Virus record (IMG/VR): IMGVR_UViG_3300025072_002801
Source: a virus
Lineage: Duplodnaviria > Heunggongvirae > Uroviricota > Caudoviricetes
Direction: 5' to 3' (one strand)
Length of the DNA stretch: 64,000 nucleotides
Shown here: positions 17,916-63,388 of the stretch, piece after piece
Layout of the letters: every line of letters begins with the position of its first letter
How positions within the stretch are numbered: position 1 is the first letter of the stretch
The notes under the pieces: model-generated
The model's database searches: none
What the model was told of the DNA's origin: nothing
Seen by the model: the letters and a program-made list of their open reading frames with translations, nothing else
Translations under genes and position numbers: made by a program

Positions 17916-18230
17916 ATGAGTGATTTAGACTTTATTTCAGGTAATTTTTTTGACGTTGATTTGCCTCGTGAGTGGAAGTATTTGGAAAAATACTTCCACT
18001 CAGACGTTCAAAGGGCGTTTTTATATTACTACTATACCTTTGACAACACTGAATTGATGGCAGACCATACTGGTCATCCTGTCAGTAAGCGTTGGTTGCG
18101 TAAGTTGAAGAGTAAATTAAGAAACATACGCAATGCACATAAAAAGGCTAAAAGTGAATTTGACATAGAAATGGTCGCTATTATTGAAAGCGGAAAATTT
18201 AGGGGATTTTATAAAACAGATGGCACATAG
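17916..18230 (+). CDS. Hypothetical protein
   Basis: 104-aa ORF; no domain. Confidence 0.45.
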   Translation: MSDLDFISGNFFDVDLPREWKYLEKYFHSDVQRAFLYYYYTFDNTELMADHTGHPVSKRWLRKLKSKLRNIRNAHKKAKSEFDIEMVAIIESGKFRGFYKTDGT

Positions 18231-19734
18231 AAAATCTTGTGGGCAATGCGGCATTGAGTTTAACGGACAGAAGTTAAAGACTAAGTTTTGTTCTAAAGTC
18301 TGTGCTGGAAAGGCTAAGAGAACTTCATACAACAAGAAGTGCGAAGAGTGCGATAATGTATTTGAAACTAATCCATCGGCTAATGCTAAGTTTTGTTCCA
18401 AGGATTGCAATTACAAAAATGCTGGAAGAACTGGCAGGATAAATGTAGCTCGTATTGAGAAATGTTGCGAATTTTGCGAAAAAACATTTGGCATCACACC
18501 GGGAGCGGAACGTAAACGCATCAAACAATTTGGTGTTGGGGCAAAATTTTGCTCTGCCAAATGTATGGGAGCATATAAATCTGCTCAATTCGACCATCCA
18601 GACGTGAATAGGAAATGTGAGTTCTGTGGAAATGGATTTGTTGTCGAAAAGCCTTGCAAGAAAAATAGGTTTTGCACGAAAAAATGTTCGTGTGAAGCAA
18701 TTAAAGAAGAAAATGAGAAAAAACGAAGCCGAATAGTTCCCTTGATGAAGGAGTATCGTCTCGCCAATACTGTCATAGAGACGGCGAAAAAGTTTGATAT
18801 GTCTCCTTCTGGAATTCGGCAATGGGGAGTATTAGGACTAGAGGCGGAAAAGAGATTATCTTGCCCCAACCAACTTACTACGGAGCAAGAAGAGGTTTTA
18901 GTTGGCAACCTCTTGGGAGATGGCTATTTGAGATGCATAAAACCAAACACAAATCAGAACACCCATTTTGGAATTCAGCAAAAATTGGAGCGATCTGAGT
19001 ATCTAAAAGGATTGTATGATATTTATTCCCATTTTTCAAGCGGATATGGAGAGGGAAAAGCCAAAAAGCCAAGCAGGGTTAATGGCAAGATTACACATGC
19101 AGCAGAGCATTGGAACGGAGAGTGGTCAGAATGGTGTCAATTGCGCACAGTTTCCCATCCAGTTTTTAATGATTATCGTGTCAAGTGGTACGAAGAACCA
19201 TATGTTAAAAACAGTCTAAAAATAATCCCAGACGATATTCGTTTGACGTGGAGAACGGCGGCAATTTGGATGTGTGATGATGGATCTAATCATGTGAACG
19301 ATGTTATCAAGGGGAGAAATTATGGTCCAAGATATTTGATGATACATACCGAATCATTTTCCGAAAATGAAGTTCAATTTCTGATCCAATGCCTGCAAAG
19401 GGATCTAGACATTAAAGGAACGCTGAACTACCATGATGGAAAGCCGACACTTCGTATTGGTGGCGATGACTGGTATAGATTTATTGAAAATATAAAACCC
19501 TATATTCCTTGGGAGTGTTTTCAATATAAATGTAAAAACCGTAAGAAAATCAATAGGAATAAGTCTGGGTTTGTGGGTGTAAGATTTCGTAGTGGGTCTT
19601 GGCACGCATACAAGTCATTTCGAGTAAGTGGAAAATACAAACAGTTCCATATTGGATCATTTGAGACTCCCGAAGCAGCCGTTGATGCTCGTAAACGATG
19701 GATTGATAAATTTTCTCAAAAAGGGAATAAGTAA
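18220..19734 (+). CDS. Free-standing LAGLIDADG homing endonuclease with C-terminal AP2-type DNA-binding domain and an N-terminal array of 4-5 FCS/TRASH-like zinc ribbons
   Basis: Repeated Cx2C-x(12-16)-(K/R)FCS(K/A)xC units (KFCSKVCAGKAKR, KFCSKDCNYKNAGR, KFCSAKCMGAYK, RFCTKKCSCE). LAGLIDADG motif 1 LVGNLLGDGYL and motif 2 AAIWMCDDGS. C-terminal SGFVGVRFRSGSWHAYK...GSFETPEAAVDARKRW (AP2). Confidence 0.65.
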   Translation: MAHRKSCGQCGIEFNGQKLKTKFCSKVCAGKAKRTSYNKKCEECDNVFETNPSANAKFCSKDCNYKNAGRTGRINVARIEKCCEFCEKTFGITPGAERKRIKQFGVGAKFCSAKCMGAYKSAQFDHPDVNRKCEFCGNGFVVEKPCKKNRFCTKKCSCEAIKEENEKKRSRIVPLMKEYRLANTVIETAKKFDMSPSGIRQWGVLGLEAEKRLSCPNQLTTEQEEVLVGNLLGDGYLRCIKPNTNQNTHFGIQQKLERSEYLKGLYDIYSHFSSGYGEGKAKKPSRVNGKITHAAEHWNGEWSEWCQLRTVSHPVFNDYRVKWYEEPYVKNSLKIIPDDIRLTWRTAAIWMCDDGSNHVNDVIKGRNYGPRYLMIHTESFSENEVQFLIQCLQRDLDIKGTLNYHDGKPTLRIGGDDWYRFIENIKPYIPWECFQYKCKNRKKINRNKSGFVGVRFRSGSWHAYKSFRVSGKYKQFHIGSFETPEAAVDARKRWIDKFSQKGNK

Positions 19735-19994: not shown

Positions 19995-21300
19995 GATATG
20001 CTAAACTAAAAGAAAGACGTGATGGGGTGAACTGCCCAACTAATCGTTGAACTTCATGCTTCATAGACAATTGGTTATTGCTAACTCTTACATCGTCTCC
20101 ACATGTGTAATCGACTGTCCCAGCCGATGTGTTTTAGTTTAATCCTTCATCAAGAATGTTTTTTGCTGCGTTTAAGTCACGATCTAATTCATGACCATTG
20201 GCGCAAGTCCATTTTCTATCTGAAAGCTTTAACTCTTGATTTATCCAACCACAAATATTACATGTTTTACTGCTTGGGAAAAATCTATTTATTTTAACTA
20301 CTTGCCTATCATTCCATTCCGCCTTGTAAGACAGATATTGAATAAATGTTCCCCAACTAGCATCAGAAATATGTTTTGCTAATTTGTGATTTTTAACCAT
20401 ACCTTTAACATTTAAGTCTTCGCAACAAATTATATCATAATCGCAAATTAATTTATTTGATATTTTGTGAAGATTGTCATGACGACAATTGGCAATTTTT
20501 TCATGAATTAAAGCAACTTTTTTCTTTTGCCTTAAATATAAATTACTGTCTTTTTGCTTTCTGCTTAAATGTTTTTGTGCCGTAGCTAATTCCTTTTCAT
20601 GCTTTTTTAAAAATCTATGATTCTTAAACCGCATATCATCTGATGTAATTATGAGTTCTTTTAGTCCTAGATCAATTCCAACTTTTTGATTGGTTTTCTC
20701 TTTAGGTTGATATTCTTCTTTGACTAAAATTGAAACATAATACTTGCCAGACTGTGTTTTTGAAATTGTAAAATTTCTTATCTCTCCATTAATTTCCCTG
20801 TGTTGCTTAACTTTGATTCCATTTTTAAATTTTGGAAAATAAATTTTACCGTTTTCCAATTTAATGGATTGTGGAACATGAAAACTATTTTTCTTTCTCT
20901 TTGATTTGTAATTTGGAAACTTTGAATTGCCTCTAAAGAAATTAACATAAGCAATTTCAAGATTCCTCAAAGCATGTTGAACAGATTGACTATTCACTTC
21001 TTTCAACCAAGTTAATTCTTTTTTGAGTTTCGTTAAAGATTTTGCTTGAGCAAAATAATTATCTGACTTTTTTTCTTTTTGATATTGTTCTTGTCTTTGT
21101 TTAAGAAAGTGATTGTACACAAATCTCACGCAACCAAAATGCTTGCCAAGAAGGTTTTTTTGGTCTTCGTTAGGGCGTAACCTAAATTTATATGCTCTTT
21201 GTATTTTCTTCACATAATATAATAGTATTGTTATTTACAAAAATAACGATAATTTTGTAAATTTTATAAAATACACAAACTTCACCTAAGAAAGCAGGAA
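19995..21300 (-). mobile_element. IS200/IS605-family TnpB-only insertion element (IS1341/ISC-like); the ends are approximate
   Basis: Single minus-strand tnpB gene, noticeably more AT-rich than its surroundings; non-coding flanks of about 140 bp (3' side, expected omega/reRNA region) and about 90 bp (5' side). Confidence 0.55.
20134..21213 (-). CDS. tnpB: TnpB (OrfB) RNA-guided nuclease-type transposase accessory protein
   Basis: N-terminal MKKIQRAYKFRLRPNEDQKNLL (OrfB_IS605 HTH); RuvC-like GIDLGLKELI; C-terminal CNICGWINQELKLSDRKWTCANGHELDRDLNAAKNI zinc finger / RuvC-III. Confidence 0.85.
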   Translation of the reverse strand: MKKIQRAYKFRLRPNEDQKNLLGKHFGCVRFVYNHFLKQRQEQYQKEKKSDNYFAQAKSLTKLKKELTWLKEVNSQSVQHALRNLEIAYVNFFRGNSKFPNYKSKRKKNSFHVPQSIKLENGKIYFPKFKNGIKVKQHREINGEIRNFTISKTQSGKYYVSILVKEEYQPKEKTNQKVGIDLGLKELIITSDDMRFKNHRFLKKHEKELATAQKHLSRKQKDSNLYLRQKKKVALIHEKIANCRHDNLHKISNKLICDYDIICCEDLNVKGMVKNHKLAKHISDASWGTFIQYLSYKAEWNDRQVVKINRFFPSSKTCNICGWINQELKLSDRKWTCANGHELDRDLNAAKNILDEGLN

Positions 21301-22229: not shown

Positions 22230-22973
22230 ATGGATAAGCCAAGTTTCCCAGAGTTTTTAAAAAGTATTGAAGTAGAATCATTTTGGTCGATTTGCCAATT
22301 AAGTGGCAATTACAATGAAATTCCCAAACATTTTGAATTGTATGATTATCAAAAAGACTTGGTAAACGCATATGAAAATGAAGATTTTATAATTCTTAAG
22401 AAGTTTAGGCAAGGAGGGTTTACGACACTATCTGTAGTCTATTCATTGTATCTGTGTTATCTTGGCGAGAAGGATGAAAGTATTTTTCTTGCATTTAATA
22501 TGGATCGTGAAGCATGTTGTGTTGGCAACTTGATTGATAGGTTGATGCAAGGCATTCCAGAAGGAATTATGCCAAACCTTGTTAAACAAACAGATCATGA
22601 AAAGGTGTTCGATAACGGATGTTCAATCTTGTTGTTGTCTTCGCAGTCGGGTTCATTGCGTGGAAGGTCTTTTTCTAGGATTTTTATTGATGAGTCGGCG
22701 TTTCATAGAGATATGGATAATTTTTGGAAAGCAATATATCCATGTATTTCCGAAGGAGGAAAAGTTGTTGTGCAATCTACTCCAAGCGTCCATGATGGAG
22801 GAAGTTGGTTTAAAAAGACTTATTTAGACGCAATGAAATTGAAAAACAAATTTAGAATATTTCATACAAGTTACAAAGAGAATCCACAATACACTCCAGA
22901 ATTCATAGAAACGCTACGATCTAATCTGGGTGACAAAGGATTCAAGCTGGAAATAGAAGCAGAATTTATTTAA
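22230..22973 (+). CDS. Terminase large-subunit ATPase-domain-like protein (T4 gp17 N-terminal-domain-like), stand-alone 247 aa
   Basis: YDYQKDLV / KKFRQGGFTTL / NGCSILLLSSQSGSLRGRSFSRIFIDESAFH / WKAIYPCISEGGKVVVQSTPSVHDGGSWF align with T4 gp17 (YQRDML / SRQLGKTTVV / [30 protein letters not shown] / WLAIQPVISSGRRSKIIITTTPNG). The Walker-A lysine position is Phe, but a Lys lies five residues upstream (lambda gpA-like deviant KxxxxGxxT). Confidence 0.65.
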   Translation: MDKPSFPEFLKSIEVESFWSICQLSGNYNEIPKHFELYDYQKDLVNAYENEDFIILKKFRQGGFTTLSVVYSLYLCYLGEKDESIFLAFNMDREACCVGNLIDRLMQGIPEGIMPNLVKQTDHEKVFDNGCSILLLSSQSGSLRGRSFSRIFIDESAFHRDMDNFWKAIYPCISEGGKVVVQSTPSVHDGGSWFKKTYLDAMKLKNKFRIFHTSYKENPQYTPEFIETLRSNLGDKGFKLEIEAEFI

Positions 22974-23510
22974 ATGTTCCAAATAATCGGAGTAGGCGAA
23001 TTAGGTGGCAATAGAGACAAGTTCACTCGCCTGTACAATAAGAAAGTAGGAAAAGGAAACTGGTTTTGGGGCTTCTGTGCCAAGAAAAACTTGTATTCTT
23101 GGGATATAGGCATGCAATTGTATGAGGATGCCTACTGGAACTACTTTAGAGGTCATAAAGCAGCTTTGAAGGGCGTTGTGAGCTATTCTAACGTCTTTGT
23201 GGAAAGATCCAGTGATGTTGAGTCTGGATTGGACTATCGCACTCAGCAGGGCTATGAGGACCATTATGAGGACATCGCAGTAAGAAGATGCCTCAGGAGA
23301 ATGGGAGTGTGGTTCAAAGGCGAAAAAGACAGGTATTTGAACGTCAATAGCTCCCCATTAAGCTCTCAACTCGTTAAATTCCACCTTCCACACCTTTTGG
23401 ATGAAGGCGAAGATAATTGTGTAGCGTCATGGATATTAAACCATAGAGTTGTTATAATCGCTGACGAACCATCAGACCAACAACAATTAGCAGAGATTCT
23501 AATACGATGA
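22974..23510 (+). CDS. Hypothetical protein (possibly the second part of a split or degenerate terminase)
   Basis: Starts 1 nt after the terminase-ATPase stop; MFQIIGVGELGG loosely resembles an RNase-H-fold strand 1 but lacks the Asp; no confident nuclease motifs. Confidence 0.4.
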   Translation: MFQIIGVGELGGNRDKFTRLYNKKVGKGNWFWGFCAKKNLYSWDIGMQLYEDAYWNYFRGHKAALKGVVSYSNVFVERSSDVESGLDYRTQQGYEDHYEDIAVRRCLRRMGVWFKGEKDRYLNVNSSPLSSQLVKFHLPHLLDEGEDNCVASWILNHRVVIIADEPSDQQQLAEILIR

Positions 23511-24196
23511 GTGATGAAATTAAAAAGCCCAATAATTCGACAATAGTTCGAGTCGAAGTGACTAATGATCAATTGATCTCCGAACCAGGGGCAAATATAG
23601 AAGTTCACTCCTTTGATATAAAAACGACAGAAGTTCCAACTGTTGAAAGTAAAATTAAAACGCCCCCAAGGAAAGTTCCGACAAAAGATGATTTTTATAT
23701 GGGAATGGCATTTGCTTCATCCGAAGAATCTAAAGATCCAAATACGCAAGTAGGAGCATTTATTGTAGCTCCAGACAATGAACCTTTAGGATATGGATTT
23801 AATGGACCTCCAAGGAGTGTTGATGATGATGCAATGGATTGGTCTAGACCCGCTAAATATTTTAAAATAGTTCACGCTGAGATCAATGCTATTAGGCACT
23901 CCAGAAGAGAGCAATTAAAGGGATCAACGATTTATGTGACAGCAATGCCATGTAAGGATTGTATTCTCGATATAGCGAATTATGGCATAAGTAAGGTCGT
24001 TTACGCAGATATGAAAATAAACGACCCAAATTCTTCTTTGACTTTGAACAATGACGATAAGAAATGCAAAACATTAGAAATTGCCGAAGATACTGGTGTG
24101 GAAGTTGTTAAATACACTGGAAGCTTAAATTGGCTAGAGAAAGTTGTCTCTAGGGCTAAACAGCAGGGTCTTATACATGAAGAACAATTGGACTAA
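23507..24196 (+). CDS. dCMP deaminase (ComEB/CDA zinc-dependent deaminase family), copy 1
   Basis: HAEINAI and PCKDC zinc-ligand motifs with dCMP-deaminase-type spacing; about 75-aa N-terminal extension. Confidence 0.75.
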   Translation: MSDEIKKPNNSTIVRVEVTNDQLISEPGANIEVHSFDIKTTEVPTVESKIKTPPRKVPTKDDFYMGMAFASSEESKDPNTQVGAFIVAPDNEPLGYGFNGPPRSVDDDAMDWSRPAKYFKIVHAEINAIRHSRREQLKGSTIYVTAMPCKDCILDIANYGISKVVYADMKINDPNSSLTLNNDDKKCKTLEIAEDTGVEVVKYTGSLNWLEKVVSRAKQQGLIHEEQLD

Positions 24197-24605: not shown

Positions 24606-25415
24606 ATGGCAGTTAGAGGATCATCAATAGGAGTATCGTGCGGTTCCAGTAGTGGATGCACTGATGAATTTGGATGCGTTGAAGGCGTATGCCCAGATTT
24701 TACAATTCGTCGTCACGACACCAAGCCTGATTTCAGGGTTTCGGTTGAAGATTGTGATGGCCCAATGGATTTGACTGATTTAGTTTTAGAAGTCAATATG
24801 TGGGCGAAAGCTAAGCTTAAAGCGGCAATAACAGATACAGATACTTATTTTGCTTTGGCAGATGGCATTGGTTTTCAACAAATTATGGTTGGAGACATTA
24901 TTGTCATGGATAGGGTTAGGCTTCCAGAGCGAATGTTGGTTACTGGTTTTGATGAAACCAATAAGCTCGTTCAGGTAACAAGAGGTTATCAAGGGACGAC
25001 AGAAGGTGCATACAAAAAAGGCACATCTTTAAGGATTATTAGAATAATAGATTCTTCTGCCCAAACCGAAATGGTTTTGGATGATGTGATACAAACTGAT
25101 GGAACTACCGCCAAAGACCAATTAGTAGAAAGTTTTTTCATTTATTCTTTTGGACCTAATGACACTTGCTTGCCAGGATGTTATTGGTTAGAATTTAAGC
25201 TAATGAAGATGGAAGATGTGGTAGTAAGTGGGTCAAGTGTCTCGATTATGGCGACAAGTGATGCAAGTATAATTCCAACATTCACAGATCCTAGTTTGAC
25301 TCCAACTGATTTTGGATGCAAGCTAGGTGATGGAGTCGAGTGGATGAGACGTTACCCAACTGTAGGAGAAGGATTCCTCATTCAAATTGTGGATTCTCCA
25401 ACTGTAGAGCTTTAA
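24606..25415 (+). CDS. Hypothetical protein (possibly structural)
   Basis: 269-aa ORF with a Gly/Ser/Cys-rich N-terminus (GSSIGVSCGSSSGCTDEFGCVEGVCPDF); no enzyme motifs. Confidence 0.5.
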   Translation: MAVRGSSIGVSCGSSSGCTDEFGCVEGVCPDFTIRRHDTKPDFRVSVEDCDGPMDLTDLVLEVNMWAKAKLKAAITDTDTYFALADGIGFQQIMVGDIIVMDRVRLPERMLVTGFDETNKLVQVTRGYQGTTEGAYKKGTSLRIIRIIDSSAQTEMVLDDVIQTDGTTAKDQLVESFFIYSFGPNDTCLPGCYWLEFKLMKMEDVVVSGSSVSIMATSDASIIPTFTDPSLTPTDFGCKLGDGVEWMRRYPTVGEGFLIQIVDSPTVEL

Positions 25416-25444: not shown

Positions 25445-27070
25445 ATGGCTACTTTATCTGAGTTCTTGATCGAGCGTTTGGAAAACGCAGGGATTAAGCA
25501 TGTGTTTGGTGTACCTGGAGATTATTGCTTAAAGTTTTACGAGCAATTATACAACAGTCCAATTGATGTCATTAACACAACTGATGAAGCACACGCAGGA
25601 TTTGCTGCCGACGCTTATGCTCGTTTGAATGGCGCTGGTTGTGTGTGCGTCACATATAATGTAGGAACTTTAAAATTAGCAAATGCTGTTGCTTGTGCTT
25701 ATGCTGAAAAATCCCCATTGGTAGTGATTTCAGGTTCGCCTGGAGTAGTAGAGCGAAATGATGACATGCTTCTCCATCACACGGTTAGAAGTTACGATTG
25801 TCAAAAAGACGTTTTTAAAAATATAACTTGTGCCAGTACGGTTTTAGATAATCCTGATACTGCTGGATATGAAATTGACCGTGTATTAGGTGAAATGAAG
25901 CATCACAAGCTTCCAGTATACATTGAATTGCCAAGAGATTTGGTAGAAAAGCCTATTACTTACGATGTTTATGGAATTGGCACTCCAAAAATGCAAGAAA
26001 CAGACCCAGAGAACTTGGAAGAGGCTTTGGAGGAGGTTGTTGGCTGGATTGATTCGGCTAAGAATCCAGTCATATTAGCTGGCGTTGAAGTAGCTAGATT
26101 TGGATTAGGAAAGCAACTTTTGAAGTTTGCCGAAAAGGGCAACATACCTATAGCCACAACATTGTTGAGTAAGTCGGTAATTAGCGAGACTCATCCATTG
26201 TTCGCTGGAGTTTATTCAGGCAGCGCAAGTCGTGAAGGGGTTAGTGATCTTGTGGAAGAATCGGATTGTTTAATTATGTTTGGGGTTTTGTTAACGGACT
26301 TAACTCTTAGCTTCAATCCAAAGAGATTTGCCAAGCGACAAACAGTTGCCGTTTCTGTTTCCGAACTTAAAGTTAAAAATCACACATATACAAATGTGTT
26401 GATGACAGATTTTTGCGAGTCTCTATTCAAAGCAGAAGTAAAAGAACGACCCATTGGAGATCTTCCAAAGAAAGCTGTTGTTGAGGATTTTGTTCCTAAG
26501 CCAGATACACCATTGACTACCAAGCGTTTGTTTGAAAAGATAAATGCCATCCTTGACAAGAATATGGCGATACTCGCTGATATTGGTGATAGCCTGTTTG
26601 GTGCATCAGATTTGGTTGTTCATGATTCTAATCAGTTTATATCACCAGCATTTTACACATCCATGGGAGCTTCAATTCCAGGTGCGTTGGGTGTTCAGTC
26701 GTTGAATCCAAAGACAAGACCAATCGTAATTGTTGGCGACGGAGCTTTTCAAATGGCTTGCACTGAGCTAGGAACAATTGTAAAGCGTGGATTGAATCCA
26801 ATTGTCATAGTTCTTAACAATGGCGGATATAATACGGAAAGGCTTATCTTAGATGGCGATTTTAATGACATTCCAGATTGGGAATATGAAAAAATTGTGG
26901 AAATGATCGGTGGAGGCAAAGGATTTAGGGTGGAGACGGAGGAATCTTTAGACTCTGCCATGGATATTGCTCTTGACTCTGACGAACTAACCGTGTTAAA
27001 TGTGTTAGTGGGAAGAGAAGTATCTCCCGCTTTAGAACGCATTACAAGTGGTTTATCTAAACGAATTTAA
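25445..27070 (+). CDS. Thiamine-diphosphate-dependent 2-keto-acid decarboxylase (pyruvate/indolepyruvate/phenylpyruvate decarboxylase family)
   Basis: N-terminal GVPGDY...AADAYAR (PYR domain), central domain, and C-terminal TPP-binding GDGAFQM...NNGGY motif; 541 aa as in PDC/IPDC. Confidence 0.75.
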   Translation: MATLSEFLIERLENAGIKHVFGVPGDYCLKFYEQLYNSPIDVINTTDEAHAGFAADAYARLNGAGCVCVTYNVGTLKLANAVACAYAEKSPLVVISGSPGVVERNDDMLLHHTVRSYDCQKDVFKNITCASTVLDNPDTAGYEIDRVLGEMKHHKLPVYIELPRDLVEKPITYDVYGIGTPKMQETDPENLEEALEEVVGWIDSAKNPVILAGVEVARFGLGKQLLKFAEKGNIPIATTLLSKSVISETHPLFAGVYSGSASREGVSDLVEESDCLIMFGVLLTDLTLSFNPKRFAKRQTVAVSVSELKVKNHTYTNVLMTDFCESLFKAEVKERPIGDLPKKAVVEDFVPKPDTPLTTKRLFEKINAILDKNMAILADIGDSLFGASDLVVHDSNQFISPAFYTSMGASIPGALGVQSLNPKTRPIVIVGDGAFQMACTELGTIVKRGLNPIVIVLNNGGYNTERLILDGDFNDIPDWEYEKIVEMIGGGKGFRVETEESLDSAMDIALDSDELTVLNVLVGREVSPALERITSGLSKRI

Positions 27071-27588
27071 TGTCAAAAATAAAAAAAGATGAAGAAAGTC
27101 GTGTAAACTATCAAATTCGCGCACACAGAGTTTTGGTCATACACGATGGTCAGAAACTCGGAGAAATGCATCCTAAAGATGCTATTGCAAAAGCACAGGA
27201 ATTGGAGTTAGATCTTGTTGAGGTTGCTCCAAATGCAAAGCCTCCTGTGTGTACCATCATGGATTATGGAAAGTGGAAGTACGATCAATCTAAAAAAGAT
27301 CGTTCTTCCCAATCTCACTCTTCAAAGTCTGAAGTTAAAACTGTGAGAATGAGGCAGAACACGGAAGACCATGATGTAGAAACTAAACTTAAGTTAATTA
27401 AAAAGTTTCTAATTAGTGGCAAGAAAGTCCAATTGCAAATAAGAAGCAAAGGACGAGAGCTTGCTCACAAGGATCGTGGTCTGGAAATTGCCAAGCATAT
27501 AATTAAAGAGCTTGAAGAAATTGGCAAGCCAGAAGCTACTCCGCGAATCAATGGCAACGAAGTTAGTTGCCGTATCAACCCTGTGTAA
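27070..27588 (+). CDS. infC: Translation initiation factor IF-3
   Basis: VNYQIRAHRVLVIHDGQKLGEMHPKDAIAKAQELELDLVEVAPNAKPPVCTIMDYGKWKYDQSKK and the C-terminal domain align residue-by-residue with E. coli IF3. Confidence 0.9.
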   Translation: MSKIKKDEESRVNYQIRAHRVLVIHDGQKLGEMHPKDAIAKAQELELDLVEVAPNAKPPVCTIMDYGKWKYDQSKKDRSSQSHSSKSEVKTVRMRQNTEDHDVETKLKLIKKFLISGKKVQLQIRSKGRELAHKDRGLEIAKHIIKELEEIGKPEATPRINGNEVSCRINPV

Positions 27589-27615
27589 GAAATATAAAGT
27601 TTCTAAAGGAATATT

Positions 27616-27882
27616 ATGGAATTAATGTTTGGACCAGGAGATGTCGTAATTCATTTGCTTACTAGCGAATGGCTTATGATACTCGCTCAAGTTACAGAAG
27701 AAGAGCCCAAAGGCTATACTGTTCGTAGGTCAAGTGATTATAGTATAATGAACTTGGCACATTTCGAAGTTGGAGTCCCAAAGGAAGAAAAAAATGACAG
27801 CAATCAAGATAACGGAAGAAGCACAGAAGGAAATCAAGAAGGTGTTCGAGGACCAGAAACTATCGAAGACGACGGTTCTTAG
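27616..27882 (+). CDS. Hypothetical small protein (DUF2158/YodC-like N-terminus?)
   Basis: GPGDVVIHLLTSEWLMILAQVTEEEPKGYTV resembles the small-protein YodC fold; the 3' 90 nt overlap the iscA-like gene in another frame, so the true end is uncertain. Confidence 0.35.
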   Translation: MELMFGPGDVVIHLLTSEWLMILAQVTEEEPKGYTVRRSSDYSIMNLAHFEVGVPKEEKNDSNQDNGRSTEGNQEGVRGPETIEDDGS

Positions 27883-28129
27883 AATTGCTGCCGAAGGCGG
27901 GGGATGCTCTGGCATCAGACATACGCTTAACTTTGAAGAAACAAAGGATAGTGAAATTGATGAAACTCAAAATCTTGTCGTAGAATTTGATGGATTCAAA
28001 TCAGTAATAGATAAAAAGTCTTTGCTGTTCATGGATGGAACAACTATTGATTATCTTCAAGATGCTGACAAAAGAGGGTTCGTGTTTGAAAATCCAAATG
28101 CAACAGGTTGCGGTGGTTGCGGGCAATGA
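27793..28129 (+). CDS. IscA/HesB-family A-type iron-sulfur cluster carrier
   Basis: MTAIKITEEAQKEIKKVF...LRIAAEGGGCSGIRHTLNFEE...FENPNATGCGGCGQ: the three conserved Cys (C-x(n)-CGCG) and the family spacing. Confidence 0.8.
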
Positions 28130-28407
28130 GCGAAGAAGCAAGATGTGCAGGCGCATGTTTGACGCATTGCTGCAAAATACATGGATGTAAATACAGAGAT
28201 CCTAATTGCCCAGTTGCAAACAACAAGCAAGAAGGAATAGCTGGATGCGAAGAATGCGGATTAGAGGCAGAGGGATATTATGGATGTTCTGACAAAGATG
28301 CATGGGACATGATATTAGAGATAGTTGCAGAAATCCATTCATTGCCTCCTGAATCATTTGCTCAGCGCAAGAAAGACCTTATAGCCATTGTAAGGAAGTA
28401 TATTTAA
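28126..28407 (+). CDS. Cys-rich small protein
   Basis: ATGA overlap with the iscA-like gene; 14 Cys in 93 aa (CAGACLTHCCKIHGCKYRDPNCP...GCEECG). Confidence 0.45.
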   Translation: MSEEARCAGACLTHCCKIHGCKYRDPNCPVANNKQEGIAGCEECGLEAEGYYGCSDKDAWDMILEIVAEIHSLPPESFAQRKKDLIAIVRKYI

Positions 28408-28691
28408 TTATTGAAGAAGTTCTGATAACCAGATTTTTTATCTCTATTTCCGGCACTCCATCCCGCTCTATACTCGTTGGCCGTTACCCAGTTTAACGGT
28501 GCCAGCCAATTTCCATCATAGCCATCGTGATAACCACGAATAAAAGATGAATCGTATACTTTGTCTCGATTCAGACTTTCTTTTGGCTTCTCTTCCACAA
28601 TTGGCTTAACAGGTACAGCCTTAGGTTCTGGGGTCTTTGCGCATCCTACGAACAAAGTGGACACGAATAATATTAAAAATAGTCTTGTCAT
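28404..28691 (-). CDS. Lipoprotein
   Basis: MTRLFLILFVSTLFVGCAKTPEP lipobox; convergent with the upstream plus-strand genes. Confidence 0.5.
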   Translation of the reverse strand: MTRLFLILFVSTLFVGCAKTPEPKAVPVKPIVEEKPKESLNRDKVYDSSFIRGYHDGYDGNWLAPLNWVTANEYRAGWSAGNRDKKSGYQNFFNN

Positions 28692-28734
28692 TGATACTCC
28701 TTTTGTTTAATATTTATGACTGGAGATAATTATT

Positions 28735-28920
28735 ATGAAAGAATTTGTTCTGGCTTTTCTGTCCATTTTTATAGCAATGGCTGTATGTCCTTTGTCATGG
28801 GGTATGTGGGGCGTATTTTTTATTTCAGCACCACTCTATTCAATGGCACTTCTTTGGCCTAAAAGGCACTTAATTATGAATTATATAAAAAAAATTAAAA
28901 CGCCCCTTGATGTGGGATAG
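28735..28920 (+). CDS. Small membrane protein
   Basis: Two hydrophobic helices in 61 aa. Confidence 0.35.
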   Translation: MKEFVLAFLSIFIAMAVCPLSWGMWGVFFISAPLYSMALLWPKRHLIMNYIKKIKTPLDVG

Positions 28921-28941
28921 GATTTTATTTAATATAAAGAT

Positions 28942-29148
28942 ATGAATAATACCCCAATGACACAGACGCCTGATGGACGATGGGTTCCTGCCCAACCATT
29001 GCCTTTTTGCAAAGATACACGTCCTTGGTATGTTAGAATTTATCATAAAATTTTAGTAATTTGTGGGCAGGATGAAGATGAGTTGATGGATTCTTGGTAT
29101 GTTCCAATGGAGCCTCCTATTGAAGATTTAAATAAGGTTAGAGGATAA
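28942..29148 (+). CDS. Hypothetical small protein
   Basis: 68-aa ORF preceding the MORN gene. Confidence 0.4.
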   Translation: MNNTPMTQTPDGRWVPAQPLPFCKDTRPWYVRIYHKILVICGQDEDELMDSWYVPMEPPIEDLNKVRG

Positions 29149-29150
29149 TT

Positions 29151-29705
29151 ATGAAAAATCATTGGGTTAATTTTGATAAAGTAGAAGACGTACTAAAAGT
29201 AGAAGACGTACTAAAAGTAGAAGACGTACTAAAAGTAGAAGACGGACTAATTGAGTACGAAGATGGAACAAAGATGTGGATTAAAGGTGGAGATTGCCAT
29301 CGCTTAGACGGTCCAGCAATTGAGTGGAGTGATGGAACAAAAGAATGGTGCGTAGCTGGGGGCTGGCATAGATTGGACGGTCCAGCACTTGAATTTTCAG
29401 ACGGGGAAAAATCTTGGTGGAAGAACGGTAGGCGTCATAGATTAGACGGTCCAGCGGTAATATGCTCAGATGGATCAGAGGTTTGGTACAGAGATGGAGT
29501 TAAAATAGATCCACCAAAAACAGGAAATAGGATGAATGACTTCCCTGGCGAGCACGACAACCATGTGCAACAACTTGCAAGTGGTGATGACGCTAGGTAT
29601 TCATCAGGAATTAAAGTAGAAATGCCTCCTATCATGAAGCCTCTTATGGAAGTTGAAGTTCCTCCAAAAGCGGTTGGCGAAGCAGAATGGGAGTTAGACG
29701 TATGA
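29151..29705 (+). CDS. MORN-repeat protein 1 with an N-terminal VEDVLK x4 heptad
   Basis: Repeats of the form W..NG..HR.DGPA.E..DG (GDCHRLDGPAIEWSDGTKEW, GGWHRLDGPALEFSDGEKSWW, GRRHRLDGPAVICSDGSEVWY). Confidence 0.7.
   Translation: MKNHWVNFDKVEDVLKVEDVLKVEDVLKVEDGLIEYEDGTKMWIKGGDCHRLDGPAIEWSDGTKEWCVAGGWHRLDGPALEFSDGEKSWWKNGRRHRLDGPAVICSDGSEVWYRDGVKIDPPKTGNRMNDFPGEHDNHVQQLASGDDARYSSGIKVEMPPIMKPLMEVEVPPKAVGEAEWELDV
29180..29251 (+). repeat. 18-bp perfect tandem repeat x3 plus one degenerate copy (gtagaagacgtactaaaa) encoding VEDVLK
   Basis: Read directly from the sequence. Confidence 0.9.
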
Positions 29706-30226
29706 GCAATGGTGACTTATATGCTGATTGGTTGAGACAAGCATACGAAGAAGCCACAAAGAGTCCTGATCCATCAACTCAAAATGGGGCTTTGTTGGTT
29801 TATGACACTTTTGCGAATGGCGTGCCAATAGACGACCCAGACATAGTTGCTGTTGATCATAATCGTTTTCCAGATGGTGTTGAATATTTGAATGAACGTT
29901 GGGAAAGACCATTAAAATACAAGATCATTGAACATGCAGAACGAAATGTGATATACAAAGCGGCATCCAAACGTACTGGCACAGGTGGATCAACAATGGT
30001 TTGTCCTTGGGCTGCATGTAGTGATTGTGCAAGAGCAATAATTCAATCTGGAGTTAAGAAGCTTGTGACTCACAAGCAAGCAGGTGATCGTTCTCCTCCA
30101 TTTTGGAAAGAAGAAATTAAAGTTGCCTTTGAAATGTTGAATGAGGCAAAAGTAGAGATTGTTTTGTTTGATGGAAAAGTAGATGGACCAGAGGTTCGTC
30201 ATAGTGGCGAGGTTTGGACTCCATGA
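29702..30226 (+). CDS. dCMP/cytidine deaminase-family protein, copy 2
   Basis: HAERNVIYKAA and PWAACSDCARAIIQSGVKKLV zinc-ligand motifs; ATGA overlap with the MORN gene. Confidence 0.7.
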   Translation: MSNGDLYADWLRQAYEEATKSPDPSTQNGALLVYDTFANGVPIDDPDIVAVDHNRFPDGVEYLNERWERPLKYKIIEHAERNVIYKAASKRTGTGGSTMVCPWAACSDCARAIIQSGVKKLVTHKQAGDRSPPFWKEEIKVAFEMLNEAKVEIVLFDGKVDGPEVRHSGEVWTP

Positions 30227-30265
30227 TGACATTTGATGACCTATCCGTTGGAGACAGGAGTGTAA

Positions 30266-31126
30266 ATGAGTTTTTTCAGATACCCAGGTGGTAAATCTAA
30301 ATTACGAAATCAAATTGCATCTAAGTTAAATTCTATAGGTGAATCTGATCTTGAATATAGAGAGCCTTTTTTTGGTGGAGGAAGCATTGGAATTAAATTG
30401 CTTCAAGAAACTGATATAAAAAAAATGTGGGTAAATGATTTTGATCCAGGTATTTTTTGCTTGTGGTCTACGCTCATAAACCGACCAGATCTTCTCAAAG
30501 ATAGGGTGAATGATTTTAAGCCATCTGTGGATCGTTTCTACGAATACAAAGAACATCTTACTGATAAGCCACCAGAACTAACATCAGATGATCTAGTCGC
30601 AGAGTACGGATTTAAAAAATTAGCCATCCATCAGATTTCATATTCGGGTTTAGGAACAAAGTCTGGTGGACCTTTAGGTGGAGCAAGTCAAAAGTCGGAT
30701 TATAAGGTTGACTGCCGATGGTCGCCTAAATACATCTGCAAGAAAATAGACAAGTTGAACAATAGATTTTCTGAATTGAATATTAGATGCACCAACTTAG
30801 ATTTCTCTGAGTTGATTTTAGACACTGAATGTGATGCAGTAATTTATTTAGATCCTCCATACTTTGTTAAGGGAAATGAGTTATATCAACACGGTTTCAA
30901 TGAGGAAGATCACAATCGTTTAGCCAAGGCATTAAAGGAAACAAACCATAAGTGGGTATTGTCCTACGATGACTGTGAAGAAATTCGTTCACTTTATGAA
31001 GGTTGGTCTAACATTGAAGTTATAGATGGAATAAACTATAGCATCACAGCGTTGAAAAATAAAGAAACTGGCGAGAGATCAAGTCGCACAAAAACAGAGT
31101 TGCTTATTATGTCGAGAAATAATTAA
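30266..31126 (+). CDS. N6-adenine DNA methyltransferase, Dam (D12 class) family
   Basis: Motif I FRYPGGKSKL and motif IV DPPY (IYLDPPYF) in Dam order. Confidence 0.8.
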   Translation: MSFFRYPGGKSKLRNQIASKLNSIGESDLEYREPFFGGGSIGIKLLQETDIKKMWVNDFDPGIFCLWSTLINRPDLLKDRVNDFKPSVDRFYEYKEHLTDKPPELTSDDLVAEYGFKKLAIHQISYSGLGTKSGGPLGGASQKSDYKVDCRWSPKYICKKIDKLNNRFSELNIRCTNLDFSELILDTECDAVIYLDPPYFVKGNELYQHGFNEEDHNRLAKALKETNHKWVLSYDDCEEIRSLYEGWSNIEVIDGINYSITALKNKETGERSSRTKTELLIMSRNN

Positions 31127-31621
31127 ATGAAAAATCATTGGGTTAATGTTGATAAAGTAGAATTTGAAGTTGACCGTGATGGAACTAAAAGTTGGAGTAA
31201 AAATGGAATGGTTCATCGAGAAGACGGACCAGCAGTTGAACATTTCAATGGAACAAAGTCTTGGATACAAAACGGAGAGTATCATCGTTTAGATGGACCA
31301 GCAATGGAATTTGCGAGCGGAAGAAAGGTTTGGCTGATGCATGGAAAGTATCATAACTTAGAAGGTCCAGCGATAATTACTCAAGATGGTCATAAAGAAT
31401 GGTGGCTAGACGGATCACGTCATCGAGGAAATGGACCAGCAATAGAACGAACGAATGGAAGAAATGAATGGTTTATAGATGGAAAGCGTCATAGGTTGGA
31501 TGGACCAGCAGTTGAACAGTTAGATGGTCATAAAGAATGGTGGGTAGAGGGCGTCTTGCAATGTGTTAAATATGCAAAAGGAAATGTCGTTCCTCTGGAT
31601 GAAATTTTAAAAAACAATTAA
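31127..31621 (+). CDS. MORN-repeat protein 2
   Basis: Six MORN-like units (HREDGPAVEHFNGTKSW, HRLDGPAMEFASGRKVW, HNLEGPAIITQDGHKEWW, HRGNGPAIERTNGRNEWF, HRLDGPAVEQLDGHKEWW). The first 12 codons are identical or near-identical to those of the MORN gene at 29151. Confidence 0.75.
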   Translation: MKNHWVNVDKVEFEVDRDGTKSWSKNGMVHREDGPAVEHFNGTKSWIQNGEYHRLDGPAMEFASGRKVWLMHGKYHNLEGPAIITQDGHKEWWLDGSRHRGNGPAIERTNGRNEWFIDGKRHRLDGPAVEQLDGHKEWWVEGVLQCVKYAKGNVVPLDEILKNN

Positions 31622-31633
31622 GGAATAAAATAA

Positions 31634-33103
31634 ATGTTTGTTGGAGTTAATTATGTCAATGGCGAGTTTGGTCAACACTCAGCCGATTTTGCAAGTATCA
31701 ACCCTGCCAATGAAAAGCAGTTGGGAATGTTTCCAATAACCAAAGGCAAGGGAGTTGATGAAGCCGTAGATGCTGCAAGGTGTGCATTTAATACATGGCG
31801 TGAACTTAGTCGAGTCAAACGTGGTGAGTATTTTGACAACTTGGCTCAGATCATGAAGAAGGAACATGATAGATTAGTTGAAACTATTACATTAGAAACT
31901 GGTAAGACTCTCAATGAAGCACATGCGGAAGTGACAGAAGCACGTCACATGGTCGAGTATGTGGTTGGCATGTCAAGAATGCCGTATGGAGAGGTAATCG
32001 CTAGTGAAGTCTCGGAGAAGGACGCTTACACGTTCCGTAAGCCCAAGGGAGTTGTTGCTATTGTTTCCCCTTGGAATTTTCCGATGGCTATAGGAGGCTT
32101 CTGGAACGCCGCCCCAGCTATCGCAGAGGGTAACTGTGTGGTGTGGAAGCCGAGTGAGTTGACTCCAATGTGCGCTCAGGTTGTAACTGAGCTTTATGAT
32201 CAAGCTGGCTTTCCACCAGGAGTTTTTAATTTAATTCATGGTATGGACAAGACAGGTGAGGAACTTGTTCATAACCAAGTGGACTGCATCTTGTTTACGG
32301 GATCGGCAGAGGTGGGCATGTTGATACGTCAGCATTGTGCGTCCACATGGCACAAAACATGCGCTTGCGAAATGGGTAGCAAGTCAGCCGTTGTCTTATT
32401 TGATGACGCGAATATGAATCTGGCGATAGATGCCTGTATCGCAAGCGCATTTAAATTAAGTGGTCAAAGATGTGTTTCTTCTGGAAGAATGATTGTCCAG
32501 AGAAGTCGTCTTGACGAGTTTACCAGTCTGTTCGTTGAGCGGGCTGGGACTTTGAAAGTTGGTGATCCAATGTTGGAAGATGGATTGTTTTATGGTCCAA
32601 TGATTAGTGCAGAGCAGATGCTTAGAGTCCAAGACTTTAATAGAACCGCATCTGGAGATCCTGATGCTGATGTTTTGATGAATGGAGTTCATGTTGGAGA
32701 CAAAGGTTATTGTCTGTCTCCTCATGTTTATGGGATGGAATGGGCGGATAAAATTACTTTAAAAAATGAAGTATTTGGTCCACATGTTGCCATCATTCCT
32801 TTCGACGATGTGGATGAAGGCATTGATATTTATAATGATACTAAATTTGCATTAGCGGTTGGAATCATCACAGATAATTTTAAAATTGCAAGACGTTGCC
32901 GCACTAGAATGGATTATGGAATGGGATACTGGAATGGGTCAAGCATTGGTGCAGAGAGCCATCTTCCATTTTCAGGTTTAAAGGCCAGCGGGAACTCCAG
33001 ACCTTCTGCTGCTCATTGTTATCGCTCTGTTACAGATGAGGTGTCTTGGACGGTAAATCATGAAGATGGTCTTACATTTTGCCAAGGAATGGATACAAAA
33101 TAA
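31634..33103 (+). CDS. NAD(P)-dependent aldehyde dehydrogenase
   Basis: ALDH signatures: SPWNFP, EMGSKSA (ELGGKSP-type Glu motif), FKLSGQRCVSSGR (catalytic Cys) and the C-terminal E..FGP motif. Confidence 0.85.
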   Translation: MFVGVNYVNGEFGQHSADFASINPANEKQLGMFPITKGKGVDEAVDAARCAFNTWRELSRVKRGEYFDNLAQIMKKEHDRLVETITLETGKTLNEAHAEVTEARHMVEYVVGMSRMPYGEVIASEVSEKDAYTFRKPKGVVAIVSPWNFPMAIGGFWNAAPAIAEGNCVVWKPSELTPMCAQVVTELYDQAGFPPGVFNLIHGMDKTGEELVHNQVDCILFTGSAEVGMLIRQHCASTWHKTCACEMGSKSAVVLFDDANMNLAIDACIASAFKLSGQRCVSSGRMIVQRSRLDEFTSLFVERAGTLKVGDPMLEDGLFYGPMISAEQMLRVQDFNRTASGDPDADVLMNGVHVGDKGYCLSPHVYGMEWADKITLKNEVFGPHVAIIPFDDVDEGIDIYNDTKFALAVGIITDNFKIARRCRTRMDYGMGYWNGSSIGAESHLPFSGLKASGNSRPSAAHCYRSVTDEVSWTVNHEDGLTFCQGMDTK

Positions 33104-36618: not shown

Positions 36619-37239
36619 ATGGCTAATATAAATACAGGGAGACACGTTGTATCTCCTGGCGAAGATCGTAGAAAGAAAGTATTGGATGCTGGTGGAGGAG
36701 TTGTAGATGTAAGCCAACTATCTCCCGAAGACAGAGCGAAGTTTATCGCATCCCAAGAAGCAAACAAGCCTCTAGGCGAATGTTGCAAAGCACCCGATAA
36801 AACATTGGATGACCTCAAAAAGGTGTTAGAGCCTTGTTCTGTAGACAGTCTTCCAAAAGTGACTGTCACACCAGACGCACAGCAGTTCATTCCTACAAGA
36901 CAGGCTGGCTTGGCTGGTTTTGATGTTGTGGCTAATGTAGATGCAGATGGCGCTGGAAGAAAGGTTATTTCATTGCCGCCACGAGGAAGTGTGACCGTGG
37001 ATTGCGGGTTTTATATTAACGTCCCAGATAATATGTCAGCATTCATTTCTATCAGTGATGAATTGGCTGAAGCTGGCGTTATAATTAAAAACGCCCCTGC
37101 TGTTGTCAGAAACGGAGATAGAGCCAAGATTATGGTCGCAAACATAAGCAAAGGTTCTGTAATCAACATAGATCATGGACAAAAAGTTGCGCAACTTAGA
37201 TTGGTTGAAACTGTCTTCTTTGATGTTGAGGTTGGATAA
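36619..37239 (+). CDS. dUTPase-fold (dUTPase/dCTP-deaminase-like) protein with an about 75-aa N-terminal extension
   Basis: QAGLAGFDVVA (motif 1-2 like GSAGLDL), GSVINIDHGQKVAQLRLVE (motif 4-like); motif 3 is degenerate and there is no C-terminal motif 5 (GFGSTG). Confidence 0.45.
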   Translation: MANINTGRHVVSPGEDRRKKVLDAGGGVVDVSQLSPEDRAKFIASQEANKPLGECCKAPDKTLDDLKKVLEPCSVDSLPKVTVTPDAQQFIPTRQAGLAGFDVVANVDADGAGRKVISLPPRGSVTVDCGFYINVPDNMSAFISISDELAEAGVIIKNAPAVVRNGDRAKIMVANISKGSVINIDHGQKVAQLRLVETVFFDVEVG

Positions 37240-63100: not shown

Positions 63101-63171
63101 AGGTGTGTAGTGTAGTGGTAGCACGACTATCTCCAAAATAGTAAGTCGAGGTTCGATTCCTTGCATGCCTG
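63101..63171 (+). tRNA. tRNA-Trp (CCA)
   Basis: Acceptor AGGTGTG/CATGCCT (two G-U pairs), D arm GTGT-AGTGGTA-GCAC, anticodon stem ACTAT/ATAGT with loop CTCCAAA, T arm CGAGG-TTCGATT-CCTTG. Confidence 0.8.
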
Positions 63172-63180
63172 CTTGATGAT

Positions 63181-63228
63181 TGCGGTTGAATTCCGCACTT
63201 AACAGGTTCGATTCCTGGTTTGGGGCAC
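63181..63228 (+). other. tRNA 3'-half-like fragment (anticodon-arm-like TGCGG-TTGAATT-CCGCA with GAA, plus T-arm-like CAGG-TTCGATT-CCTG) lacking acceptor and D arms
   Basis: Hand folding; no complementary 5' acceptor strand found upstream. Confidence 0.3.
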
Positions 63229-63269
63229 TCCCCCAGATGTGGTGATTATGGCTATGACACACATCATAC

Positions 63270-63343
63270 GGTAGCGTAGTGTAGTGGTTTCTGCACACCT
63301 GTCTGTCGAACAGGAAGCGTGAGTTCAATTCTCATCGTTACCG
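63270..63343 (+). tRNA. tRNA-Asp (GTC)
   Basis: Acceptor GGTAGCG/CGTTACC, D arm GTGT-AGTGGTTTCT-GCAC, anticodon stem CCTGT/ACAGG with loop CTGTCGA, T arm GTGAG-TTCAATT-CTCAT, discriminator G. Confidence 0.85.
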
Positions 63344-63388
63344 CTTAGGGTTCGATTCACAAATGTCTGCAATTTACTATATAATTGT

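Follow-up and report, generated by a model that had tools for sequence, protein, structure and literature searches.

Comparison with described systems

In bacterial ipdC-feaB loci (Acinetobacter feaB-lrp-ipdC-aroP; Enterobacter cloacae indolepyruvate decarboxylase (IPDC), structure 1ovm) the genes for a PDC-family decarboxylase and an aldehyde dehydrogenase lie a few kb apart. KdcA and KivD of Lactococcus lactis (2vbf, 9msa, 6vgs) are branched-chain enzymes of the Ehrlich pathway, feeding an aldehyde to dehydrogenases. A pair of genes with the same two-step logic was analysed in a 64,000-nucleotide (nt) stretch of viral DNA (IMG/VR virus record IMGVR_UViG_3300025072_002801, Caudoviricetes; the whole stretch is called the window below). 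They encode a thiamine pyrophosphate (TPP)-dependent 2-oxoacid decarboxylase of 541 aa (DC; 25445..27070, + strand, ATG start) and an NAD(P)+-dependent aldehyde dehydrogenase of 489 aa (ALDH; 31634..33103, + strand, ATG start). An earlier note, made from the letters alone, had placed a full-length decarboxylase and an aldehyde dehydrogenase at these positions within 5 kb of each other; this was confirmed, with a gap of 4,563 nt. We put at about even the chance that DC and ALDH form an optional, phage-borne and coenzyme A (CoA)-independent route of the Ehrlich type for the two-step oxidative decarboxylation of 2-keto acids.

KdcA and KivD belonged to the same family as DC (E ~1e-83), had identical catalytic D/E/HH/E residues and a hydrophobic pocket, and were 32–33% identical to it; delivery of an aldehyde to a dehydrogenase, as known for them, is what we propose for DC. 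The phenylpyruvate decarboxylase (PPDC, formerly IpdC; 2nxw) of Azospirillum brasilense shared with DC the three-domain TPP fold and residues D26, E48, H111/H112, D285, D382, L384 and F385. It was 33% identical and had Met-Leu where DC kept the canonical T464-E465, and DC differed further in being phage-encoded and, as predicted, translationally coupled to the initiation factor IF3. The Acinetobacter record provided the cellular precedent for a decarboxylase beside an ALDH; its IpdC was 31% identical to DC and the adjacent FeaB only 29% to ALDH. In contrast to that locus, unrelated phage genes intervened in the window, and neither an Lrp regulator nor an aromatic amino-acid transporter was found in its Pfam scans. 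Nor was an aminotransferase found there, when 54 further open reading frames (ORFs) were compared with Pfam (best 25 of 38 families) and 20 ORFs were scanned singly.

Huge phages (Al-Shayeb et al. 2020, PMC7162821), with LR756511.1 among them, have the same type of genome, of hundreds of kb with tRNAs, IF3, ribosomal protein S21, peptide deformylase and DnaJ. The main and supplementary text of that paper, with its emphasis on translation and nucleotide metabolism, did not mention a pyruvate- or indolepyruvate-type decarboxylase, and "aldehyde dehydrogenase" occurred only as a per-gene product annotation in the supplementary GenBank files. Huge-phage genomes served only as a search set in PMC8942020. 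Literature searches on a phage ipdC, indolepyruvate decarboxylase or pyruvate decarboxylase (PDC) auxiliary gene, on a DC-ALDH pair and on the phage record LR756511 found nothing relevant.

Identity of the decarboxylase

DC matched Pfam TPP_enzyme_N (E 2e-28), TPP_enzyme_M (2e-27) and TPP_enzyme_C (1.9e-26), all above the Pfam cut-offs. These matches covered residues 3–520 of 541, and the three-domain architecture (PYR, middle and PP in one chain) was present. A sequence resembling a ribosome-binding site, AAAGGCGGA, lay 5 nt 5' of the ATG. The top NCBIfam model was TIGR03394 (indolepyruvate/phenylpyruvate decarboxylase, 379.5 bits), followed by TIGR03393 (315.4 bits), and models of acetolactate synthase, pyruvate oxidase and sulfoacetaldehyde acetyltransferase scored at most 197.5 bits each. 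The equivalog cut-offs of the two leading models (554.5 and 946 bits, respectively) were both missed. In the PDB, A. brasilense PPDC was the best match (4e-87, 296 bits), followed by L. lactis KivD/KdcA (~282 bits), IPDCs (~252–256 bits) and PDCs (218–235 bits), as against at most 118 bits (~1e-33) for acetolactate synthases. Identity to characterised enzymes was 27–33%, and was nearly equal (~31–33%) for PPDC, KdcA, KivD and Acinetobacter IpdC.

On these profile scores DC is assigned to the PDC/IPDC/PPDC/KdcA family as a genuine member; because both equivalog cut-offs were missed, the names IPDC and PPDC should not be applied to it. Membership of the PDC/IPDC family, as the earlier note had it, was upheld by the best NCBIfam model, by the PDB scores and by a tree rooted on IlvB; DC did not group with sulfopyruvate or phosphonopyruvate decarboxylases or with acetolactate synthases, the alternatives named there. 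Phosphonopyruvate decarboxylase (Ppd) and sulfopyruvate decarboxylase were excluded as identities of DC by its three domains and by its best scores on PDC-family models. No Ppd or ComDE model was among the best 25 of the 52 NCBIfam families matching DC, and no phosphoenolpyruvate mutase was found in Pfam scans of the window ORFs.

Active site and substrate pocket

Residue positions of DC were assigned from HMMER alignments to 2nxw, 9msa and 2vbf. Pocket positions of KdcA/KivD, E. cloacae IPDC (EcIPDC) and Zymomonas mobilis PDC (ZmPDC) were mapped through HMMER alignments and a 132-sequence alignment. Catalytic D26, E48, H111, H112 and E465, together with G431-D432-G433 and N459, were invariant in an alignment of 42 relatives, and N458 was found in at least 90% of them. 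We take the five catalytic residues to be the counterparts of D27, E50, H113, H114 and E473 of ZmPDC.

In the pocket, KdcA S286 was replaced by L286 in the window protein (Met in most relatives), Q377 (EcIPDC Q383) by I380, F381 (ZmPDC W392) by L384, V461 (ZmPDC I472) by T464, I465 by I468 (Leu in most relatives), M538 by I533 (Met in most relatives) and F542 by L537, and F382 was matched by F385. L384 was invariant at the position of ZmPDC Trp392, the bulky residue that closes the pocket to small substrates and narrows PDC for pyruvate; the Trp of a pyruvate decarboxylase sensu stricto was thus lacking. The pocket was wholly aliphatic, roomier than that of PDC and without an extra basic residue for a distal carboxylate, and it was near-identical in the phage clade, its cellular sister clade and a second viral group.

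Such a pocket speaks against DC being specialised for pyruvate or acting on a distally charged substrate. Phenylpyruvate and indolepyruvate would be compatible with it; as it is not diagnostic, it cannot separate them from branched-chain substrates.

The pocket bears also on a bypass of central metabolism, either of pyruvate dehydrogenase (PDH; pyruvate to acetaldehyde to acetate) or within the tricarboxylic acid (TCA) cycle (2-oxoglutarate to succinic semialdehyde to succinate). A TPP decarboxylase with an ALDH is the architecture of the known bypasses: the yeast PDH bypass consists of these two enzymes, and a cyanobacterial TCA bypass over 2-oxoglutarate, succinic semialdehyde and succinate was reportedly described by Zhang and Bryant in 2011. 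Succinic semialdehyde dehydrogenase (SSADH) and alpha-ketoglutaric-semialdehyde dehydrogenase were among the best NCBIfam matches of ALDH (290–320 bits). However, we regard a bypass as very unlikely, given the Leu in place of the PDC Trp and the all-aliphatic pocket with no basic residue for a distal carboxylate. Moreover, true PDCs scored below PPDC, KdcA and IPDC against DC, the cyanobacterial 2-oxoglutarate decarboxylase is acetolactate-synthase-like, unlike DC, and all equivalog scores of ALDH were far under the cut-offs.

Phylogeny of the decarboxylase

In a neighbour-joining tree of 132 sequences, rooted on IlvB (25% identity), the huge-phage DCs were monophyletic (83/100 bootstraps). 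They adjoined a large cellular clade at 45–51% identity, mainly of Planctomycetota and Verrucomicrobiota and also including anammox, Nitrospira, Nitrososphaera and Poribacteria genomes. The nearest characterised enzyme was A. brasilense PPDC, weakly placed (45/100), and KdcA, KivD, Acinetobacter IpdC and a Staphylococcus aureus homologue formed a separate clade (100/100). DC was the best conserved gene of its neighbourhood, at 49–69% identity among related loci as against 31–47% for IF3 and 31–43% for DnaJ. This conservation, together with the monophyly of the phage sequences, fits one acquisition followed by purifying selection.

The earlier note had linked the gene pair to the indole-3-pyruvate route to indole-3-acetic acid (IAA) and to a signalling acid. 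A route from indole-3-pyruvate or phenylpyruvate, making IAA or phenylacetate that would act on the host or on neighbouring organisms, would agree with TIGR03394 as the best NCBIfam model, with A. brasilense PPDC as both best PDB match and nearest characterised enzyme, with L384 and F385 shared by the two proteins, and with the adjoining of bacterial ipdC to feaB and aroP. We nevertheless consider it unlikely. The score of DC fell far under the TIGR03394 cut-off, and the PPDC grouping is weak, at an identity equal to that of KdcA/KivD. At pocket and catalytic positions PPDC has Met and Leu for T464 and E465, and the DC clade has Ile/Val at the position corresponding to Gln383 of E. cloacae IPDC. 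The low identity of ALDH to FeaB and the lack of an aminotransferase and an aromatic amino-acid transporter in the window scans also speak against this route, and the gene context offered no rationale for a signalling acid. The indole-3-pyruvate specificity and the signalling acid were thus not borne out.

At least two other groups of IMG/VR contigs (L025-L045; e.g. L041:9998-11668 and L037:9998-11728) carried PDC-family decarboxylases 34–38% identical to DC. In one group a tail-sheath gene adjoined the decarboxylase gene, and two genes downstream of the latter came one for a short-chain dehydrogenase (SDR). In the second group the decarboxylase gene stood amid FadB-like, lipase, PRPP synthetase, FTR1 and DHODH genes, and that group may represent a giant virus or cellular contigs.

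The aldehyde dehydrogenase

ALDH matched Pfam Aldedh (PF00171) with 421.5 bits (E 4.7e-126) over residues 17–466. N148 (PWNFP), E246 (EMGSKS), C280 (GQRCVS), G223/G228 (FTGSxxVG), K172, E175 and E379 were invariant in 32 relatives. Since the family matches of DC and ALDH were strong and their catalytic residues invariant across relatives, both are intact full-length genes and cannot be chance ORFs. PHROGs families existed for both enzymes (phrog_11199 and phrog_15577), each labelled "unknown function". ALDH was below every NCBIfam equivalog cut-off: the best model, GucD, gave 320 bits against a cut-off of 770, SSADH 290 against 646 and StyD 259 against 850, and StyD, SSADH, BADH and AstD all scored ~250–300 bits.

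Relatives of ALDH at 49–57% identity were abundant on smaller viral contigs of 20–180 kb (with DnaB, primase, split Pol III alpha, ThyX and SSB). There the gene lay in a cassette of the order Glyoxalase_4 - ALDH - DDAH-like - Aminotran_3 (class III) - UDPG_MGDP_dh-like - Sacchrp_dh (L131-L134 and L135-L214; e.g. L133:7480-13408), sometimes with an ornithine-cyclodeaminase-like gene upstream; no published description of it was found. The cassette looks like a catabolic or modification pathway of the arginine, ornithine, lysine or polyamine type. It shared with many huge-phage relatives of the window the same ALDH clade and the same UDPG_MGDP_dh-like partner, and differed from the window in having no TPP decarboxylase, the window having none of the other cassette genes. 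Phages thus use the ALDH clade in two contexts at least, each of them resembling amino-acid catabolism. That the second context, with its DDAH-like, class-III aminotransferase and saccharopine-dehydrogenase-like genes, also appears amino-acid catabolic favours a joint module of DC and ALDH.

Distribution of the two genes

In 24 related loci retrieved through DC, the gene order was deaminase - up269 - DC - IF3 - c3 - [IscA] - [ALDH] - [c28] - unk142 - DnaJ - ... - GT2, where brackets mark genes that were variably present, up269 is a conserved gene upstream of DC, c3 an unknown gene and c28 the UDPG_MGDP_dh-like partner. ALDH was present in half of these loci, and in related phages it had the same syntenic position, after IF3/c3/IscA and before unk142-DnaJ. 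In several of them only IF3, c3 and sometimes IscA separated it from DC.

A second survey used the unrelated gene up269 as marker and so avoided the bias of retrieval through DC. It yielded 49 loci from IMG/VR and 80 from JGI metagenomes, which were dereplicated at 95% to 62 lineages, gene presence being scored within flanks of 6–10 kb. Both genes were present in 16 lineages, DC alone in 28, neither in 17 and ALDH alone in one (L294); DC thus occurred in 44/62 and ALDH in 17/62. ALDH was found in 16/44 lineages with DC as against 1/18 without it (Fisher p=0.014, not corrected for phylogeny). In lineages without DC, IF3 followed up269 directly, and both the DC-less and the ALDH-bearing states were scattered over the up269 tree. 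Because the two genes were variably present across the 62 lineages, the module is accessory, with ALDH occurring almost only alongside DC. That ALDH was rarely found without DC and DC often without ALDH is what would be expected if ALDH consumes the product of DC, a correlative argument.

The distance matrices of DC and ALDH were correlated (r=0.61, Mantel p~0.0015, 11 non-redundant loci), with equal mean divergence (0.44). This correlation was at least as strong as those of DC with up269 (0.56), DnaJ (0.50) and IF3 (0.43). Such co-divergence points to joint vertical descent of DC and ALDH with repeated loss. The pairing claimed in the earlier note accordingly held as a non-random association; it did not hold as a tight operon, and the ALDH clade occurred elsewhere without a decarboxylase.

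The rival to a joint route is that the two genes are independent cargo: DC would act alone, the ALDH clade would work on amino-acid- or polyamine-derived (amino)aldehydes, and their proximity would reflect a shared variable region next to IF3. We hold this to be a possibility, at well short of an even chance. The following observations favour it or weigh against a joint route. At 79 other viral loci an ALDH of the same clade had no decarboxylase within 10 kb; Glyoxalase_4 lay directly upstream at 53 of these, with Sacchrp_dh at 48, a UDPG_MGDP_dh-like gene at 35, a DDAH-like gene at 23 and Aminotran_3 at 21. Roughly half of the huge-phage loci with an ALDH also had the c28 partner after it, and in a neighbour-joining tree huge-phage ALDHs were interleaved with those from contigs lacking a nearby decarboxylase. 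The top PDB matches of ALDH were betaine-, trimethylaminobutyr- and aminoaldehyde dehydrogenases (~240 bits), not aryl- or alkyl-aldehyde enzymes. Within the survey itself, 28 of the 44 DC-bearing lineages lacked ALDH, and L294 kept ALDH without DC. Because the same slot held sugar-modifying genes (epimerase, acetyltransferase, glycosyltransferase) in ALDH-less relatives, it is a variable cargo region, and the adjacency of ALDH to DC may be partly incidental. In the window the gap between the two genes was occupied by IF3, by genes for an IscA-like protein, a deaminase and a Dam methylase, and by several small ORFs, so that DC and ALDH did not form a tight operon pair, and promoter and terminator scans remained at chance level, with no transcription units callable. 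No conserved partner gene, and hence no pathway clue, was found near the 80 closest genomic homologues of DC in cells. The missed equivalog cut-offs of DC and its 27–33% identity to characterised enzymes, by which no substrate was assignable, count against a joint route.

Against independent cargo stand the survey contrast of 1/18 DC-less with 16/44 DC-bearing lineages, the co-divergence of DC and ALDH, which at least matched that of other syntenic genes, and the absence of DDAH, aminotransferase, saccharopine dehydrogenase and glyoxalase genes near ALDH in both the window and the huge-phage loci.

Proposed function

In the two-step route that we propose, DC, with TPP and Mg2+, would convert a medium-sized or large hydrophobic 2-keto acid into CO2 and an aldehyde. 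Likely substrates would be the keto acids that arise when branched-chain, aromatic or sulphur amino acids are transaminated. Where ALDH is present, the aldehyde would be oxidised irreversibly to a carboxylic acid, with formation of NAD(P)H, the two steps presumably being coupled. Together the two enzymes could replace the multi-subunit 2-oxoacid dehydrogenases or oxidoreductases of the host without CoA, lipoate or ferredoxin. The step that forms the keto acid would have to come from the host, as the window scans turned up no aminotransferase. The irreversible steps might pull host transaminations forward, amino nitrogen being freed as glutamate for nucleotide synthesis; reducing power and removal of a toxic aldehyde may be further benefits. 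DC should also be able to act alone, leaving the aldehyde to host enzymes, which would explain why DC without ALDH was far commoner than the reverse. The keto-acid-to-acid route suggested in the earlier note is plausible as far as these two steps go; the aminotransferase, which is the first step of both routes named there, was not found in the window scans.

A more specific version is offered tentatively. A cosmopolitan lineage of 250–690 kb phages may have acquired DC once, and this gene, together with an ALDH of the phage lineage, may constitute a minimal CoA-independent 2-oxoacid oxidation module, co-expressed early with IF3 and stripping host amino acids of nitrogen and reducing power. The DC subfamily would then be an uncharacterised one shared with Planctomycetota, Verrucomicrobiota, Nitrospira and Nitrososphaera.

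The two proteins come from familiar superfamilies, within which they are nothing out of the ordinary, and auxiliary metabolic genes are already known from phages; the finding is mechanistically unsurprising. The module is also well conserved, widespread, cleanly testable and tied to an orphan decarboxylase subfamily. The auxiliary metabolic genes of huge phages have so far mostly been discussed for translation and nucleotide metabolism; the module, if real, would add amino-acid catabolism, redox or nitrogen scavenging to the effects of these phages on their hosts. If a single acquisition and an early module are correct, it would represent a class of phage metabolic reprogramming so far undescribed. 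It would likewise offer a first way into the function of the large orphan subfamily, which has hundreds of cellular homologues and no characterised member, and assignment of a substrate would annotate many genomes. DC and ALDH make up a compact two-gene system that is directly testable by heterologous expression. Were the product an auxin-like acid, it would bear on signalling between phage, host and eukaryote, a case that the present evidence does not favour.

Neighbouring genes

The gene directly after DC encodes a homologue of translation initiation factor IF3 (27070..27588, +; Pfam IF3_N and IF3_C), and followed DC in 22/24 related loci. Because the stop codon of DC overlaps the start of IF3 (TAATG), DC is predicted to be co-expressed with, and translationally coupled to, the phage IF3. 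In related phages (L002:3657-4851 and L003:3231-4387) genes for ribosomal protein S21 and peptide deformylase were seen 5–7 kb upstream of DC; DC is therefore embedded in a translation-related block (S21, peptide deformylase, IF3 and DnaJ).

The conserved gene up269 (24606..25415, +) lay directly upstream of DC in 24/24 loci, with gaps of 10–113 nt. It encodes a Cys-rich, all-beta protein, with large variable insertions in some relatives. Its PHROG matches were to tail proteins and weak (E 3e-4), no Pfam or PDB profile matched it, and a single-sequence AlphaFold model had a pLDDT of 33. In one relative (L296:7941-13229) it made up the N-terminal part of a larger protein (1,762 aa) that contained an ASST (arylsulfotransferase-like) beta-propeller and Laminin_G_3 (ConA-like lectin) domains. 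The product is probably a structural or adhesin N-terminal domain, acting as a virion adhesin or fibre anchor. An enzymatic partnership of up269 with DC was rejected on the tail-protein matches and on this fusion to a lectin/beta-propeller protein.

An IscA/HesB-like Fe-S assembly protein was encoded at 27770..28129 (+; Pfam Fe-S_biosyn, 3.6e-15). The gene was conserved between IF3 and ALDH in many relatives, and neither DC nor ALDH needs Fe-S clusters.

Further towards ALDH lay a dCMP-deaminase-like gene (29687-30226, +; Pfam dCMP_cyt_deam_1), a Dam-type N6-adenine methyltransferase gene (30266-31126, +; Pfam MethyltransfD12) and an ORF of 164 aa (31127-31621, +) with no family given. The methylase gene and the 164-aa ORF were absent from this position in related huge-phage loci, and the deaminase matches there were to the deaminase gene upstream of up269. 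All three are taken to be lineage-specific insertions outside the module. A second dCMP-deaminase-like gene (23507-24196) and a dUTPase/dCTP-deaminase-like gene (36619-37239) also surrounded DC and ALDH, and the window encoded a nucleoside 2-deoxyribosyltransferase-like protein as well. The cluster of deaminase, methyltransferase and dUTPase-like genes suggests that the nucleotide pool is remodelled or DNA modified.

The phage setting

The source of the window is a very large marine phage, whose relatives form a widespread lineage of 250–690 kb phages. Nearly all genes of the window were on one strand, at ~39% GC and with a steady positive GC skew, and composition was uniform across the DC/ALDH region. 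The window encoded a TerL-like fragment, a T4-type RNA ligase, PhoH, a phage metallopeptidase and homing endonucleases; IF3, DnaJ, peptide deformylase, thioredoxin and a sigma-70 region 4 protein were also encoded, and five tRNA genes (Met, Met, Pro, Trp and Asp; 61446-63344) lay at the 3' end.

In the phage collection the only close relative of both enzymes was LR756511.1, a 595-kb "uncultured phage", with DC 53% and ALDH 52% identical and both gene order and strand conserved; megablast of the 9-kb region against phage records gave no match. Homologues at 60–75% identity occurred on contigs from metagenomes, the longest being 693 kb, and on viral contigs from IMG/VR, where the length reached 572 kb. 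A contig of 389,237 bp carried an identical ALDH and TnpB and a DC of the same 90%-identity cluster, and ALDH was identical in several other assemblies. DC and ALDH were cellular-type genes with phage genes on either side, and their presence varied between related phages, as is the case for auxiliary metabolic genes. Relatives on IMG/VR contigs and in LR756511.1, in conserved synteny with phage genes, bore out the earlier claim that DC is phage-borne.

That the two genes are artefacts, through bacterial contamination, chimeric assembly or decay into pseudogenes, would be in line with the bacterial origin of many nominal "phage" records matching DC or ALDH, among them contigs of Acinetobacter, Listeria, Staphylococcus and Salmonella. 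We judge this explanation barely credible here, since the order up269-DC-IF3...ALDH-unk142-DnaJ recurred on dozens of independent contigs of 40–690 kb from separate projects. The uniform composition, the intact ORFs with invariant catalytic residues, the predicted coupling of DC to the phage IF3, and the identical proteins on the 389-kb contig and in several other assemblies argue likewise.

Upstream of the module, a TnpB gene of the IS200/IS605 type (OrfB_IS605 and Zn-ribbon; 20134-21213, −) was among the few long minus-strand ORFs and coincided with a local GC dip to 0.335. At 359 aa it was ~40 aa shorter than most relatives (~398 aa). In another phage (L022) a TnpB homologue was inserted between DC and IF3. 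A 247-aa ORF (22230-22973, +) matched the terminase large subunit in its central part only (positions 257–455 of 807 in phrog_2; Pfam Terminase_6N). Related phages L002 and L004 shared the genes flanking it and had no such ORF there; a fragment of TerL, a split gene and a mobile insertion are candidate explanations for it. Two large homing-endonuclease-like ORFs were found on the + strand (5-1519 and 18184-19734), one with HNH and one with HNH and LAGLIDADG motifs. Together with TnpB, the homing-endonuclease-like ORFs indicate that selfish elements have a hotspot at 18–23 kb.

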